From: Escherichia phage vB_ESM-pEJ01
Sequence record: OP114734.1
Length of the DNA stretch: 64,000 nucleotides
Direction: 5' to 3' (one strand)
Part shown: positions 9,114 through 62,235 of the stretch, one piece after another
How the letters are laid out: each line of letters opens with the position of its first letter
How positions within the stretch are numbered: the first letter of the stretch is position 1
Made by a program: the position numbers and the translations under genes
The notes under the pieces: generated by a model
Seen by the model: only the letters and a program-made list of their open reading frames with translations
The model's database searches: none
Told to the model about the DNA's origin: nothing

Positions 9114-10142
9114 TTAAAATTTACAATATTTCATAAACCGCATTTTAGCCATCAGACCTTGTACGGTGTTCTCTTTGATATATTCCATGATCTGGTCGCG
9201 TGTAGCGCCCTCGTCCTGAATCATGGCGTTGACGTCTTTAGAATGCCACGGGCAACGATCCCACAATACAATCTTTTCCCCTGCATTGATAAACTTTTCC
9301 AGTCGGTGCATTGTATCGGCAGACCGTGGTTCCGCATCAAGTACAAACACTCGCTGATCAGGGAAAGGAATTTCATCTAATCCCAAAGTACCGCCAGTAA
9401 TTGCACACCCGTTATCAATAAACAATGAATCGATCGGACCTTCTAAGAAATACACTGGCCTACTCGGATCGGCGCGTTCAAGACCATAGACCTTACTCGC
9501 TAACTCATGAGTTTTAATCGTCATATATTTGGTCTTTCCGTAATCCTTTCTCAATGCTCGCCCCTGAATGGATTCTATCTTGTTCTCGCGGTTAAAGATA
9601 GGAATCACTAAACGCGGTTCAGGTTGTGGATTCTTGAAAGTATCAGCCTTAATGTGATTTGCTACCTTTTGCCATTCTCTCGTGAAATACAGAAGATCCC
9701 ATTTATCGTGGGGAATGCAACGATCACTGACATACTTTATTATAGGATGATTAGCCGGAAGAGTATCTAACCTCTCGCAGAAAGGCAATGTTTGCACTTT
9801 CTTAATCTCCGGCTTTTCTACCTTTTTCAGTGGCTTGAACGTGGTGTTCTTGTGGTCGCCTTGTTCCTTCCGTCGTTCCATAAGCCATTCCCTGAATAGG
9901 TCCGGCTTATATTGTTTAAGAAATTCACCTAACGGCTGATTATAGTTACAGTTGAAGCAACCACAACGCAAACTATCTTTATAGGTATAGATACGGAATC
10001 GCGCTTGAGTATGATTTTTCTTTGAGTCACCGCAGATCGGACAACTACACACCAGCGTAAATGAGCTAGTATGCAACCGTTTAAAATTTCGTTCGCCGTA
10101 TATGGCTTTTTCCGCTATTTCATAATCTGCGTAGTAAATCAT
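9114..10142 (-). CDS. 61: DNA primase gp61
   Basis: 342 aa (same length as T4 gp61); N-terminal zinc-binding cysteines CSCPICGD...CGCFNC; position next to gene 56. Confidence 0.85.
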   Translation of the reverse strand: MIYYADYEIAEKAIYGERNFKRLHTSSFTLVCSCPICGDSKKNHTQARFRIYTYKDSLRCGCFNCNYNQPLGEFLKQYKPDLFREWLMERRKEQGDHKNTTFKPLKKVEKPEIKKVQTLPFCERLDTLPANHPIIKYVSDRCIPHDKWDLLYFTREWQKVANHIKADTFKNPQPEPRLVIPIFNRENKIESIQGRALRKDYGKTKYMTIKTHELASKVYGLERADPSRPVYFLEGPIDSLFIDNGCAITGGTLGLDEIPFPDQRVFVLDAEPRSADTMHRLEKFINAGEKIVLWDRCPWHSKDVNAMIQDEGATRDQIMEYIKENTVQGLMAKMRFMKYCKF

Positions 10143-18346: not shown

Positions 18347-18428
18347 AATATAAACTCCTTCATTTACGAAAGACACTCATTATAGGGGAATCGACCTAGT
18401 TTGTCAATACCCCTATCCCATCAGTATC

Positions 18429-18791
18429 TTAGCGTCCGATCTGATATTTCTCGATCAGCGTCCACTCTTCTTTCTGTTTGAAAGACAGTACACGGAAATT
18501 ATTAACTTCGGTAGTTTCAAAATCACTATCAATCAGGGTACACAGATTCCACTGCGCCAGAAGTTTTGCAATGTTATTACGGCGTAATTCATCTTCCCAC
18601 GTCATTTTAACACTACGACCATCTAATTTCAACAACTCCTTGAAATGAACGATGTAATAGCGCCCCTTCTTCTGGAGAATATGACAAGACTGATACAGTG
18701 TCTTGTCTCGATTGTTGGCAATGCCGCAGCGGGTTAAAGTCTCCTTAATTTTAAGGAAGTTTTCAGGACTAATCAAATTAATTTCAATCAT
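18429..18791 (-). CDS. regA: RegA translational repressor
   Basis: MIEINL...KETLTRCGIANNRDKTLYQSCHILQKKGRYYIVHFKE matches remembered T4 RegA. Confidence 0.9.
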   Translation of the reverse strand: MIEINLISPENFLKIKETLTRCGIANNRDKTLYQSCHILQKKGRYYIVHFKELLKLDGRSVKMTWEDELRRNNIAKLLAQWNLCTLIDSDFETTEVNNFRVLSFKQKEEWTLIEKYQIGR

Positions 18792-23817: not shown

Positions 23818-24061
23818 TAATCCACTCCGCAATCACACATTCCATAATATTAAATGCTAACACATCTTCATCAATATTGTAAACACTTGCCGCCTTCACT
23901 TTAACTAATGTGTCTCTGCGATCTGGCAACATGATCACATAATCCAGTGTCGCAGGATCATATGTCATAAAGGGATCAACATAAATCCCTTTATTCAATG
24001 CCAGATATTCGCGAAGACCTTCTATAACCCTGTGTCTAAGGTAGGTCATCGATAGAATCAT
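23798..24061 (-). CDS. hypothetical protein (87 aa)
   Basis: ORF track. Confidence 0.45.
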   Translation of the reverse strand: MILSMTYLRHRVIEGLREYLALNKGIYVDPFMTYDPATLDYVIMLPDRRDTLVKVKAASVYNIDEDVLAFNIMECVIAEWINGKVKF

Positions 24062-45207: not shown

Positions 45208-45984
45208 TTACACGCGAGCACCGTAGATCGTGCCTACTTTATCCCAGCGTGGAGCATTACCAGTAACAGCCTTACCAGCAGCACCGCCGTTATATTCTGT
45301 ACCGTTACCTTGAGTATTACATCTTCCTCCAGCAGCACCGACATTACCACCCGAACCGCCTGTATATGCACTAAGAGACCCCTCACCAACAGATCCTTTA
45401 CCAGGAGCGGAAATAGTACCAGCAGTTGCACCGGAACTCATATGAGAGGAAGACCCACCAGCACCGAATGGGCGACCACCGCCGCCGCCAAATACTAGTC
45501 GACCCCTGTTACCGCCGCCACCGCCGCCACCGCCGCCAGCGATAGCACCGTTATTTGTAATTCGTAGACGTGTACCGATAGCGTTATTGATTGCGTTTCC
45601 ACCAGCAGCGCCAGCAGCGTTACTACCACCATTACCCCCACGTCCGTAGACAGTCACATCGGAGTTGATGATCAGTGTTACATACTCGTTTGTTAACGAG
45701 CTAGGGAAGTCAAGACAAGGAACGCCAGTAGATTGGGAAACAATATTACCTGTGATAGTAATTACTACAGGAGTAGATCCTTGTGCTTTCATCCAGTTAA
45801 TAAGAGTGTCTTTATTGTAAGAGTTACTAGCACCAATGCTATAATGAATCTCTTTAGAGCGTCCGACCATTGCCGACATATACGCCGGACGACCTAAGCG
45901 TACAGCTTGCATTGCGGCGCTCATCCACCGTTGACCAGTCTCGGACACAGCAGATGATCCTACCCATCCAGAAGATATTGCCAT
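45208..45984 (-). CDS. glycine-rich protein (258 aa) with poly-Gly tracts
   Basis: C-terminal half about 45 percent Gly incl. GGGGGGGGG and GGGGG runs (ccg/cca triplet repeat 45511-45537); ordered N-terminal domain. Confidence 0.55.
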   Translation of the reverse strand: MAISSGWVGSSAVSETGQRWMSAAMQAVRLGRPAYMSAMVGRSKEIHYSIGASNSYNKDTLINWMKAQGSTPVVITITGNIVSQSTGVPCLDFPSSLTNEYVTLIINSDVTVYGRGGNGGSNAAGAAGGNAINNAIGTRLRITNNGAIAGGGGGGGGGNRGRLVFGGGGGRPFGAGGSSSHMSSGATAGTISAPGKGSVGEGSLSAYTGGSGGNVGAAGGRCNTQGNGTEYNGGAAGKAVTGNAPRWDKVGTIYGARV

Positions 45985-47571: not shown

Positions 47572-47588
47572 AACACCTAAAAACGAAA

Positions 47589-47608
47589 AAGCCACCCTTT
47601 CGGATGGC
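47589..47608 (-). terminator. rho-independent terminator
   Basis: rc hairpin agccatccgaaagggtggct followed by UUUUCGUUUU. Confidence 0.5.
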
Positions 47609-47842
47609 TTTTGATTATATTTTATTCACGTCCATTTGTATAGTAGTGTTTGAATCGACCTTTGCTAAACTAGTTAAACATAGTAACCAATTCACCATCC
47701 CTTTCCAATGATAACCCTTCCTCGTCTTAGACGGGTCTTCCGATTCGGCAGTAATTGAACACGCGAAAGTATGAGGAAGCCAAATAGTTGTGTTAATGCT
47801 AGTATTCTTTTACTTCTGGTATGCATCCCACGGTGACTAACA

Positions 47843-48241
47843 TTAAGACAGTCGAGTGAGTTTATAAATTGTTTTAAAACATAGAGCTTTGATATCGTCT
47901 AAAACGCTCTGTAACGAGCTATCAACATCATTATAAATCTCACTAGCCATTTGCGTTAACTCTTGCAAATAGGCAATTTCGCTAATCTCCTTGCGGACGA
48001 CCAACGTTGGCTGATAACGACCAGTGATCCCAATATTGGTTTCAGTGAAATCATCAACCAATTCTTGCATTTCAAGATAGAACTCTTCTAGAGCCTTATG
48101 TTTTGCATAAGATCCAGGACCAGTTACCCCAAAATGCGCAGAATGCATATAAGTAACACTCATCAGACATTCACCGATAAAGCGGTCAACTTTATTATCT
48201 TTTCCCTCTTCGGACGTCTTTCGAAAATCACTGAATTTCAT
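47843..48241 (-). CDS. possible ferritin/Dps-like four-helix-bundle protein (about 132 aa)
   Basis: MSVTYMHSAHFGVTGPGSYAKHKALEEFYLEMQELVDDFTE loosely resembles Dps HWNVxG...HE motif; start at ATG 48241 (track ORF begins 48340). Confidence 0.35.
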   Translation of the reverse strand: MKFSDFRKTSEEGKDNKVDRFIGECLMSVTYMHSAHFGVTGPGSYAKHKALEEFYLEMQELVDDFTETNIGITGRYQPTLVVRKEISEIAYLQELTQMASEIYNDVDSSLQSVLDDIKALCFKTIYKLTRLS

Positions 48242-59470: not shown

Positions 59471-59656
59471 TCAGAAATATGCAATATAGTTTGCCAGTCC
59501 TACAGAGTCATCATTCGGCATTGCTTTTACCGCCAGTTCAAACCCTTCTTCAACTTTCTGTTTAGCGGATTCTTCGTTATAACCCCAGATGACCAGAATA
59601 GCTACTACGTTTTCTTTGCTTACTGCTTTCAGTGCTTTAGTGATGCGACGTGCCAT
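59471..59656 (-). CDS. hypothetical protein (61 aa)
   Basis: Promoter-leader cassette upstream. Confidence 0.45.
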   Translation of the reverse strand: MARRITKALKAVSKENVVAILVIWGYNEESAKQKVEEGFELAVKAMPNDDSVGLANYIAYF

Positions 59657-59702: not shown

Positions 59703-59731
59703 ATTATGCTATAGGCGTGATCTGGTGTCAA
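59703..59731 (-). promoter_or_regulatory. sigma70-type early promoter (-35 TTGACA rc 59726-59731; -10 CATAAT)
   Basis: 17-nt spacer; recurring cassette. Confidence 0.5.
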
Positions 59732-59763
59732 CAACTTTTTTAAAAAATTTTAGGCAATAAAAA

Positions 59764-59785
59764 AGCCACTCCGAAGAGTGGCTTA
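59764..59785 (-). terminator. rho-independent terminator
   Basis: Hairpin agccactc-cgaa-gagtggct followed on minus transcript by UUUUUUAUU. Confidence 0.5.
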
Positions 59786-59786
59786 T

Positions 59787-59932
59787 AGGGAAGGTAGCGA
59801 ATCTTCCTTGTCTCCAACCTGCTAGCGGCCTAGCAAGTGAATGCTTTAGCGTACCGGATCACCCCATACGCTGTAATAAATGCGGCTAGGTGACGTCCAA
59901 ATCATTCTAACCGCGCTGTCTTTAGTTCACTA
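59787..59932 (-). ncRNA. candidate structured non-coding RNA / long 3' UTR (about 145 nt between stop codon and terminator)
   Basis: Several short hairpins (ggaag/cttcc, gctag/ctagc, gcgta/tacgc, gcggctag/ctaaccgc); no ORF; no tRNA cloverleaf found. Confidence 0.25.
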
Positions 59933-60151
59933 TTATTTATATCGCTTTCTCTCGCGACGTTTTTGATCTTCTTCCTTGATAGAGTTAAACGCATCAAAAA
60001 GACACATGACACTGATAATGAACATAACCGTATTTTCTACGATATCCCACGGCTTCGCATCAGTACAGATCCCCCAAACGGTAAGAAATGCAAATAGTGC
60101 AGAAGAGATCACAAGCATGATACTTGCTAAGATATAAAAAGTCATTTTCAT
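59933..60151 (-). CDS. small membrane protein (72 aa)
   Basis: Hydrophobic helices; basic C-terminus. Confidence 0.45.
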   Translation of the reverse strand: MKMTFYILASIMLVISSALFAFLTVWGICTDAKPWDIVENTVMFIISVMCLFDAFNSIKEEDQKRRERKRYK

Positions 60152-60342
60152 GGTTTTACCTCAATTCTTCGATATTCATCACACATCCACGCAGTAAGCA
60201 AGAATCCCAGCACATAAGCAACAAAATACGTTAATGCTTCTTCTGGTTTCGTGCTATGTATCATCAGTAAACCAGCGAGAACGGTCTTAACAATTACATT
60301 TAAAATAACTAGCCACGCAAATAATTTCATCGTTTGCCCCAT
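60148..60342 (-). CDS. small membrane protein (64 aa)
   Basis: Hydrophobic helices. Confidence 0.45.
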   Translation of the reverse strand: MGQTMKLFAWLVILNVIVKTVLAGLLMIHSTKPEEALTYFVAYVLGFLLTAWMCDEYRRIEVKP

Positions 60343-60566
60343 TTCGGTCGAGTCTTTTCAAACTTATACATTCCGTAACAATCTCGAATCATCCACGTAA
60401 CAAGAGCACCAGTCAACACAGACAATACACAGAAGAAGTAAAACGGTCCGGTTGCATTATCAACATGAGCAAGCCATGTAAAGAAAACACATGCAAGGAA
60501 CGTGAAGAACATCATAAAGCACAAGAAAGCAAAATATTTTATACTACTCATAGCGCCACCATACAA
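60327..60566 (-). CDS. small membrane protein (79 aa)
   Basis: Hydrophobic helices. Confidence 0.45.
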   Translation of the reverse strand: MYGGAMSSIKYFAFLCFMMFFTFLACVFFTWLAHVDNATGPFYFFCVLSVLTGALVTWMIRDCYGMYKFEKTRPKWGKR

Positions 60567-60654
60567 CAGATCATAAGAAACCCCAACGCAATAAGAATTG
60601 CGTCAAATTTAGTGAACTCAGGTCCACCTATCAACATCATTCGTTCTATTTCGT

Positions 60655-60897
60655 TCATAGCGTACAAAGCCATTTAAAAGCACCACATAAAGCGAGCAGA
60701 ATACTAGGTATAAACGAGATCATAACAAGTTTGCAAAAATCATCTAAGGTAACGCCGGAATAGCTACCTACTGTAACAACACCGATCATCAGACACAGAA
60801 AGAAAACAAATGCAACCAGAAACAAAGTATTGCTAAACAGTTTAGTGATCATTAGACACCCCACGACGATCAATTTCAAAAACTTTTTTACCATCAA
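60655..60897 (-). CDS. small membrane protein (start uncertain)
   Basis: Hydrophobic helices; overlaps upstream ORF by 56 nt. Confidence 0.4.
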   Translation of the reverse strand: MMVKKFLKLIVVGCLMITKLFSNTLFLVAFVFFLCLMIGVVTVGSYSGVTLDDFCKLVMISFIPSILLALCGAFKWLCTL

Positions 60898-61045
60898 CGA
60901 AGCATGTCACAACTGCCTCGTTGACTTCCGCAAATTGTTGTGTTACCCACTTAAGGTCAGAGCGAAACAATGTTCTATTAATAACAAATGTTTTACCGCT
61001 CTTATCCTTACCCATAAATTTTGCTTTAACCATATCCAATTCCAT
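60842..61045 (-). CDS. possible Dmd-like antitoxin (67 aa)
   Basis: MELDMVKAKFMG...QQFAEVNEAVVTCFVDGKKVFEIDRRG resembles my recollection of T4 Dmd (not verifiable here); not in the T4 dmd position. Confidence 0.35.
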   Translation of the reverse strand: MELDMVKAKFMGKDKSGKTFVINRTLFRSDLKWVTQQFAEVNEAVVTCFVDGKKVFEIDRRGVSNDH

Positions 61046-61757: not shown

Positions 61758-61764
61758 TATAAAA

Positions 61765-62235
61765 TTACAGTTTGGACGTCCACTCCAGGTCTAGATCTTC
61801 GACATACTCATGAGATCGGACAATCTCTAAATCGAACTCTAGGTCAGTGCCAAATTTACGCGCACCAACATCATAAGAAAGCGTGATATGCGGTACATAT
61901 TCAGGATAATCCCACGTCGCGCCTAAAGCAGTGCCTATATCGTGTCTGAATTGCATGTAGTCGCTTTCAAATGCCAACACAAGCGCATTAGTACCGGATT
62001 GAGTTTCAAACACTTTAAGATGGCATAGAGAGCCTAAGAACTTTTCACCCTCTTCTGGTATAAACGGAACATAGACACGAGAATATAAGATAGTGCTATG
62101 CAGTTTATCACGAGGAACGGCATTAGGCAGATCGTAGAACTCCTGCAATTTTTCAATGCGGTCTAGTGTATCCTCAGTGAATTTAACCGCCGCATATGTA
62201 CCTTTAACGGATTCTCTAAACGGGGTCATAATCAA
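61765..62235 (-). CDS. 2H phosphoesterase, Acb1-like (T4 57B position; candidate anti-CBASS cyclic-nucleotide phosphodiesterase)
   Basis: Two H-x-T/S motifs (HSTILYS and HITLSYD) about 90 aa apart; about 155 aa; adjacent to 57A-like gene. Confidence 0.55.
   Translation of the reverse strand: MIMTPFRESVKGTYAAVKFTEDTLDRIEKLQEFYDLPNAVPRDKLHSTILYSRVYVPFIPEEGEKFLGSLCHLKVFETQSGTNALVLAFESDYMQFRHDIGTALGATWDYPEYVPHITLSYDVGARKFGTDLEFDLEIVRSHEYVEDLDLEWTSKL

Follow-up and report, generated by a model that had tools for sequence, protein, structure and literature searches.

Several described systems can be compared with the subject of this work, a structured untranslated segment at positions 59787-59932 on the minus strand of a 64,000-nucleotide (nt) stretch of Escherichia phage vB_ESM-pEJ01 (sequence record OP114734.1; the whole stretch is hereafter called the window). 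In the ToxIN systems of P. atrosepticum and of E. coli plasmids, the type III antitoxin ToxI is made of tandem repeats and is accompanied by toxN; its units have a stem-1/loop-1 core, a pseudoknot stem 2 and a cleavage site (AAAU/GAAAU), and a terminator follows the last unit of the array (PMC8860590). Phages can carry ToxI-related sequences of their own (pseudo-ToxI), for which the PhiTE escape locus is the experimental precedent (Blower et al. 2012, PMC3475682), and the T4 proteins TifA and Dmd, from what has been referred to as the tifA-dmd locus, are inhibitors of the toxins ToxN and RnlA/LsoA (PMC10853763). Promoter-early stem-loop (PeSL) cassettes, consisting of a terminator, an AT-rich spacer and a promoter, were described in RB49 and phi1 (Arbiol et al. 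2010, PMC2839356); their stem-loops are known terminators and attenuators and recombine, and the region is hyperplastic (PMC2839356). Finally, T4 has a tRNA cluster and rnaD/rnaC downstream of 57A-57B. RNAs C and D of T4 are small non-coding RNAs matured from a tRNA precursor, and they have tRNA-like ends.

Considered next to these systems, the segment is probably the body of a conserved, expressed non-coding RNA (ncRNA) gene specific to Krischvirus, and not a spare 3' untranslated region (UTR); its expression is predicted from the promoters and the terminator described below. We give a probability of roughly 0.4 to the whole of the explanation that we favour, in which this ncRNA gene carries a ToxI-like module that acts as a decoy.

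The distribution and conservation of the segment support its identity as a gene. A 1-kb query around it matched 58 phage records at 97-100% identity, all of them RB49-like (Krischvirus, Straboviridae), and the segment was found in all 58 records that carry the Krischvirus 57B gene (58/58). Its body is single-copy in RB49, where it lies between RB49p118 and RB49p117 without any annotated feature. Scans of IMG/VR and of metagenomes, by pattern and by flanking proteins, yielded only three extra sequences. The three relatives that diverge most come from IMG/VR and metagenomes; in them the upstream open reading frame (ORF) is 79.0, 91.3 and 90.0% identical, whereas the segment is 94.6, 98.0 and 95.9% identical. 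Among 11 sequences, nucleotide diversity (pi) is 0.0055 in hairpin H1 and 0.003 from linker 2 through hairpin H4, compared with 0.03-0.12 in the flanking ORFs; overall, H1, H3, H4 and the linkers are 10-20 times less variable than those ORFs. The single variable column of H1 changes from A to G, and pairing is preserved there as U-G. Between these two near-invariant blocks lies H2 (pi = 0.11), with a hypervariable apex that contains 1-2 nt indels. Invariant islands around a variable H2 point to site-specific constraint rather than to a recently exchanged block, and the pattern as a whole argues for strong local purifying selection on the segment. No ORF of at least 30 amino acids (aa) is found inside it, and the sole ATG frame (19 codons) is shifted between strains by the H2 indels; because these indels break the frame, we regard the segment as non-coding, and a small peptide encoded by that frame was dropped as a candidate.

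The predicted fold is consistent with an RNA read from the minus strand. The 146-nt segment folds at -48.7 kcal/mol (z = -2.79; 1/200 dinucleotide shuffles equal it), and a 172-nt RNA that includes the terminator at -63.3 kcal/mol (z = -4.76; 0/200). The complementary strand gives a weaker fold (-41.7 kcal/mol, z = -1.46), an asymmetry that fits a minus-strand RNA because the stems hold G-U pairs. Four hairpins (H1-H4) were recovered whether a single sequence or the alignment was folded. This bears out the sequence-only reading made earlier, which had reported at least four short hairpins in the minus transcript of a 145-nt untranslated segment ending at a strong terminator; its boundaries proved accurate within 1-2 nt. 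All on the minus strand, the elements run as follows. The 5' leader of the predicted late transcript (59915-59928; GAACUAAAGACAGC) has one variable column among the 11 sequences. H1 (59882-59914) has 12 base pairs (bp), interrupted, of the form GCGCGGUUAG..CUAGCCGC, enclosing an inner stem (UGAU/GUCA) and the loop UUGGAC. H2 (59848-59872) has 7+2 bp, its stem (A)GCGUAU/GUACGC(U) is kept, and its apex in the window is GGGGUGAUCCGGUACGCUAA. H3 (59818-59837; 8 bp, CUUGCUAG-GCCG-CUAGCAGG) is invariant in 17/17 sequences; H4 (59789-59807; 5 bp with a 9-nt loop, GGAAG-AUUCGCUAC-CUUCC) is invariant as well. Five stem substitutions were observed, all compatible with pairing: one compensatory change from G-C to A-U and four wobble changes to G-U. 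The compensatory change and three of the wobble changes fall in the stem of H2.

When 5110 subwindows of 150 nt were scanned across the window, the region of the segment was among about the 10 lowest raw minimum free energies; its GC-corrected residual was only z -2.2 to -2.4, its GC content being 0.49 versus a mean of 0.40 in the window. The structure of the segment is real, yet it is not unique within the window. Subwindows of 150 nt with lower residuals than the segment (z -3.3 to -4.1) were seen on the minus strand at 23851-24050, 18351-18500 and 47976-48150. The region 45376-45650 stands out by its GC content (0.58-0.64 versus the same mean of 0.40) and folds at -64.7 kcal/mol on the minus strand versus -29.4 kcal/mol on the plus strand. 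RB49 has an annotated gp38-like tail-fibre adhesin at similar coordinates; if the region is that gene, its fold may stem from codon composition and not from an RNA element.

The segment is flanked by candidate transcription signals on both sides. At its 5' edge, an exact T4-type late promoter consensus, TATAAATA (59934-59941, minus strand), overlaps the last codons and the stop of the upstream ORF (cga TAT AAA TAA), which places the predicted late start at about 59928/59927, 6-7 nt downstream of the motif. Exact TATAAATA sites number two in the 64-kb window versus 5.6 expected, both on the transcribed strand, and the other one precedes rI. Across the RB49 genome there are 14, every one on the sense strand, and 12 of the 14 precede late-gene starts by 25-45 nt (rI, 53, 9, 18, 22, 23, 24, uvsW, 51, 31, 34 and p250); the gene 21/22 site overlaps a stop codon in the same manner as the one at the segment. 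Among homologs of the segment, 16/17 keep the motif. The only other RB49 site without a following start codon (94996-95367) falls in the gap of ~500 nt that separates genes 23 and 24, with the small ORF RB49p162 lying ~365 nt further downstream; it could belong to a late transcript with a long leader, or to a second one that is non-coding.

On the 3' side there is an intrinsic terminator (59757-59784, minus strand) with a 9-bp stem, AAGCCACUC-UUCG-GAGUGGCUU (59784-59763), followed by U6. It forms the stem-loop half of a PeSL cassette, and the early sigma-70 promoter of this cassette (59703-59731, minus strand; TTGACA-17-CATAAT, 11/12 consensus positions) is conserved and lies outside the RNA. 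The succession of terminator, AT-rich tract and consensus promoter known from the PeSL cassettes of RB49 and phi1 is confined to 59703-59784; the 145-nt body differs from them, being single-copy and outside the repeated motif. Relatives of the terminator, at 85-87% identity, are found at three other RB49 loci. In phage FL15 the terminator loop is inverted (CTCTTCGGAG to CTCCGAAGAG, equivalent to 59776-59771) and the stem is unchanged, a flip of the hairpin loop that fits with PeSL stem-loops undergoing recombination or template switching.

With these signals, the RNA would be made in two ways in the explanation that we favour. Early in infection it would form the 3' end of the transcript of the dmd-containing operon, initiated at promoters at 61721-61693 and 61273-61245; late in infection it would be a stand-alone transcript of ~170 nt, from TATAAATA (59941-59934) to the terminator (59784-59757). 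Selection would keep H1, H3, H4 and the linkers near-invariant and leave the H2 apex free to vary.

The resemblance to ToxI was first suggested by a likeness of H4 to the 36-nt ToxI repeat; the sequence used for that repeat is present at 100% in pECA1039 and among E. coli plasmid matches. A ToxI-like module (59793-59818, minus strand), composed of linker 3 and the 5' arm and loop of H4 (GUUGGAGACAAGGAAGAUUCGCUACC), is invariant in 17/17 homologs. The stretch GAUUCGCUACCUU (59803-59791) is identical at 13/13 nt to the ToxI repeats of the E. coli ETEC4065 plasmid and of pPA21A, and the same 13 nt recur in the single ToxI-like units of two T4-like phages, VR20 and TG1, while GUUGGAGACAAGGAAGAUUCGCUACC is identical at 22/26 nt to the repeat junction of ToxI of the pKpnJMC type. 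Both matches are to natural ToxI variants, carried by E. coli and Klebsiella plasmids. The best local ToxI score of the segment is 30, a value equalled by 2/5000 dinucleotide shuffles and reached by 6/4618 RB49 segments (0.13%), which represent three loci including that of the segment. A second match is seen at the H2 apex, where GGGGUGAUCCGGUACGCUAA is identical at 18/22 nt to a pGRT1-type ToxI unit (score 24, for the variant in the window). Together the two best matches sum to 50 in the window sequence, versus 27.6 +/- 3.3 in shuffles, none of which reached as high (0/1000).

The position and the nucleotides of the module fit this resemblance. It falls in the invariant part of the segment, on the transcribed strand and directly 5' of the terminator, where ToxI has its own terminator after the last unit of the array. 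The core nucleotides of ToxI (stem-1 G2,G3/C14,C15; G5; A6; U12; A19, A20 and G21; compared with PMC8860590) are present in AAGGAAGAUUCGCUACCUU..UAUAAG, with a 6-nt insertion in loop 2 relative to ToxI. From these matches, we lean towards linker 3 and H4 being derived from, or a mimic of, a ToxI repeat junction. Under such an origin, the module would keep the 3'-overhang-like GUUG-A-ACAA, the G-C pairs of stem 1, G5, A6, the loop UUCGCU and A19/A20/G21; the cleavage motif GAAAC would have become GGAGAC, and the second pseudoknot strand would have been replaced by the terminator. Elsewhere in the window, a 16-nt exact match to canonical ToxI (GTGATTTGCTACCTTT; 9654-9669, plus strand) lies antisense in a 342-aa primase-like ORF (9114-10142, minus strand). 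The expected number of matches of this kind is below 0.02 per window; this one is probably due to chance, yet it outscores the RNA's own match.

A number of results weigh against the favoured explanation. The ToxI match is short, and the two other RB49 loci that score 30 are antisense to coding genes and presumably reflect chance. The match in H2 is not conserved, as other strains score 14-21. With a hidden Markov model of ToxI, the segment was the best match in the window, but at E = 0.85, and it ranked 6th in RB49; an alignment extended into H3 was not significant (22/3000) and was rejected. Tandem repeats of ~34-38 nt are absent from the segment: the best self-alignment covers 6 nt, below the shuffle mean, and Tandem Repeats Finder reported none. 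The idea of three internal ToxI-like units or diverged repeats was likewise unsupported by self-alignment. No credible match to toxN was found in the window or in RB49 by tblastn with three ToxN proteins. The 3' strand of pseudoknot stem 2 (G23 C24 R25) is missing, since AAG runs into the terminator (CCACUC...) with no GCG downstream. The cleavage motif (AA^AU / GAAAU) is missing too, with GGAGAC where the pKpnJMC type has GAAAC, and the RNA contains no AAAU. The module has no properly placed 3' overhang, and binding to ToxN in vitro is lost when the ToxI core has no single-stranded overhangs (PMC8860590). On its sequence, then, the RNA is not a ToxI: it has neither the repeats, nor toxN, nor stem 2, nor the cleavage motif.

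Other points on the same side concern the gene rather than the module. In the metagenomic variant MAVA L037 the TATAAATA motif is deleted. All homologs are at least 94% identical, the three extra sequences included, and such shallow divergence partly explains the invariance. Covariation is statistically weak, with one compensatory pair and 38/500 shuffles doing equally well; the four-hairpin fold is plausible, with covariation too sparse to serve as proof. Finally, a literature search returned no transcriptome, small RNA (sRNA) or expression study of any Krischvirus.

A comparison with ToxI-like units in other phages places the RNA at some distance from them. BLAST with ToxI dimers found ToxI-like sequences in 297 phage records, as single near-complete units, unannotated and 88-98% identical to plasmid ToxI, though Krischvirus was not recovered. 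In VR20 (Gaprivervirus) and TG1 (Tegunavirus) one complete unit immediately follows the stop codon of rIII, and Bas88 has one ToxI-like unit, also unannotated, just 5' of a terminator; our literature search found no description of pseudo-ToxI in T4-like phages. Like the pseudo-ToxI of PhiTE, VR20, TG1 and Bas88, the RNA of the segment is non-coding, related to ToxI, on the transcribed strand in an intergenic or 3' UTR position, and followed by a terminator; with VR20 and TG1 it shares GAUUCGCUACCUU exactly. These phage sequences carry at least one near-complete 36-nt unit, whereas the RNA has only ~26 nt of repeat junction plus AAG, without the stem-2 strand or the cleavage motif; furthermore, it is embedded in a four-hairpin RNA and has a late promoter. 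With matches of 13/13 and 22/26 nt and no near-complete unit, its sequence is not that of a classical pseudo-ToxI. A similarity of the whole RNA to the intergenic regions of VR20, TG1 and Bas88 was also considered, and none was found beyond the ToxI core.

The genomic context of the RNA recalls the grouping of anti-toxin genes in T4. There, dmd and 61.4, which we take to be tifA, are adjacent genes. In the phage studied here, dmd (60842-61045, minus strand) belongs to the same early operon as the segment. TifA of T4 is a protein; homologs were found in 675 phage records, and none was detectable in RB49 (tblastn, best E 0.7). Our hypothesis is that the RNA substitutes for TifA. As a tentative proposal, it may work as a decoy for toxins of the ToxN family: it would occupy ToxN-family endoribonucleases that become free once host ToxI has decayed in the infected cell, the early and late promoters would keep it supplied for the whole of infection, and it would complement the antitoxin Dmd of the same operon in a phage without detectable TifA. 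In its most specific form, which we consider doubtful, the RNA would be a new kind of anti-defence, a single-copy, uncleavable mimic of the ToxI junction set in a four-hairpin RNA, expressed early and late, that neutralises abortive-infection RNases of the ToxN family in place of the TifA of T-even phages, the H2 apex being an arms-race surface that tracks ToxN clusters.

The RNA could instead be a regulatory sRNA that acts by base pairing or with a chaperone, its linkers and loops pairing with host or phage mRNAs or sponging Hfq, ProQ or CsrA, and its likeness to ToxI would then be a coincidence. A structured body followed by an intrinsic terminator with a U6 tail is the typical enterobacterial layout, loops and linkers do not vary, phage sRNAs have precedents, and linker 3/H4 holds ACAAGGAAG, which resembles the CsrA motif from systematic evolution of ligands by exponential enrichment (SELEX), ACARGGAUG. 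However, there is no complementarity of at least 12 nt to any RB49 transcript, GGA motifs are not enriched (4 versus 2.4 expected), and the ToxI match (p about 0.001) is left unexplained; we hold this possibility to be unlikely. Counts for a CsrA sponge and for CTAG enrichment were not above expectation, and pairing of the H2 loop GGUGAUCC with the 3' end of 16S rRNA was dropped, as it is not kept among strains.

A comparably low probability is given to a purely cis-acting 3' UTR, in which the hairpins would shield the early operon mRNA from 3' exonucleases, reinforce termination or insulate the PeSL promoter. The segment does lie between a stop codon and a PeSL terminator, and PeSL stem-loops are known terminators and attenuators (PMC2839356). 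Yet other PeSL terminators in the window come within a few nt of stop codons (e.g., at 61758, after the 57B stop at 61765), a stabiliser requires structure but not near-invariant loops and linkers, and a late promoter stands at the exact 5' edge. The other long stretch before a PeSL terminator also speaks against this explanation, since it is not unusually structured (z = -1.57). That stretch (47585-47842, minus strand; ~230 nt untranslated) contains a 44-codon ORF at 47692-47826 and is located between an rI.-1-like ORF and another PeSL. The sequence-only reading had offered two options for the segment, a small RNA analogous to those of T4 or simply a structured 3' UTR; selection, presence in 58/58 records and the late promoter better support the former, although homology to T4 RNAs C and D did not hold.

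Less probable again is a non-functional relic, the decayed remnant either of a captured ToxI array or of a deleted ORFan that PeSL-mediated recombination left behind, whose conservation would reflect shallow divergence and hitch-hiking. The ToxI features are only partial, the ToxI-like H2 is visibly decaying, the downstream 61-aa ORF is likewise 97-98% conserved, and the region is hyperplastic (PMC2839356). A relic would hardly show the low diversity seen in H1 and from linker 2 through H4 relative to the adjacent ORFs, interrupted by a hypervariable H2, nor be kept in all 58 genomes.

An element acting at the DNA level, whether in recombination, as an origin of replication or by binding a protein, is very improbable. 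The hairpins fold on both strands, PeSL stem-loops recombine (PMC2839356) and FL15 has the inverted terminator loop described above; however, folding is asymmetric between strands, with G-U pairs that favour a minus-sense RNA, and the promoter, the terminator and the ToxI-like strand share one direction.

Lastly, a tRNA-like RNA or a homolog of T4 RNAs C and D is effectively refuted, since the comparable map position on the same strand downstream of 57B (~1.9 kb upstream of the segment in the window) comes with no cloverleaf, no similarity in sequence or structure to rnaC/rnaD, and no tRNA genes in the window as a source of processing. The sequence-only reading had pointed to this T4 neighbourhood and had seen no cloverleaf; the positional analogy stands, both loci being downstream of 57B, and ARAGORN and Rfam agree on the lack of a cloverleaf. 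ARAGORN found 0 tRNA genes in the window, and at a relaxed threshold (80%) its sole output was a 91-nt artefact with a "2-nt anticodon"; 19/200 shuffles came up to that level too. The Rfam tRNA model (RF00005) had no match at E <= 10, and a tRNA, pseudo-tRNA or tmRNA was thus rejected. A blastn-short comparison of T4 rnaC/rnaD with the segment gave nothing above 8-nt chance words. An identity of 10 nt between H1 and the D-loop of E. coli tRNA-Asp was dropped as within chance (~0.4 expected). Among 4227 Rfam models, none matched the window at the gathering threshold, the best sub-threshold match being RNAI (22.8 bits versus 47); Rfam also misses genuine ToxI arrays, which makes this negative uninformative on ToxI. 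Host origin was rejected as well, since searches of 5,426 E. coli genomes, 72,556 plasmids and 185,579 GTDB genomes gave no match; three matches of 20-23 nt in Fibrobacter and Verrucomicrobiota were judged to be chance. A RegB site in linker 3 was discarded, with only 8/11 positions of GGAGRAYARAA and a disfavoured C at position 6.

The genes around the segment are on the same strand. In RB49, 57A, 57B and dmd are upstream of it. The ORF immediately upstream (59933-60151, minus strand) encodes a membrane-like protein of 72 aa (phrog_15168, function unassigned); its stop codon is TAA (59933-59935), with TAG next in the same frame, and it is the last gene of the early operon, so that its mRNA carries the segment as 3' UTR. 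Directly 3' of dmd, at 59933-60897 (minus strand), there are at least five very small hydrophobic, membrane-like ORFans (41-80 aa), each with its own PHROG of unassigned function. The downstream ORF (59471-59656, minus strand), 3' of the PeSL and served by its sigma-70 promoter, is a 61-aa ORFan. Homologs of it, at 74-79% aa identity, are found in sixteen viral contigs, mostly of ~50 kb and possibly from T1-like siphophages, in which the RNA is absent; this indicates gene exchange across phage families. Many relatives show an apparent indel of 680 bp in this region, which probably results from joined matches between PeSL repeats, as no large gap opens in the alignment with RB49.

Phage therapy makes use of RB49-like phages, which also serve as a model of how plastic "pseudo-T-even" genomes are. 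None of the Krischvirus records examined has an annotated ncRNA gene, and an RNA constrained at the nucleotide level throughout the genus and served by a dedicated late promoter would be the first ncRNA candidate in Krischvirus; a T4-type late promoter driving a non-coding transcript would in itself be unusual. If the likeness to ToxI is functional, mimicry of a type III antitoxin would extend from PhiTE, its sole laboratory example, to a natural counter-defence fixed in coliphages, and phages would have two kinds of answer to ToxN, one a protein (TifA) and the other an RNA. The single ToxI-like units that lie unannotated in some 300 phage genomes bear on how far toxIN reaches in shaping phage genomes.

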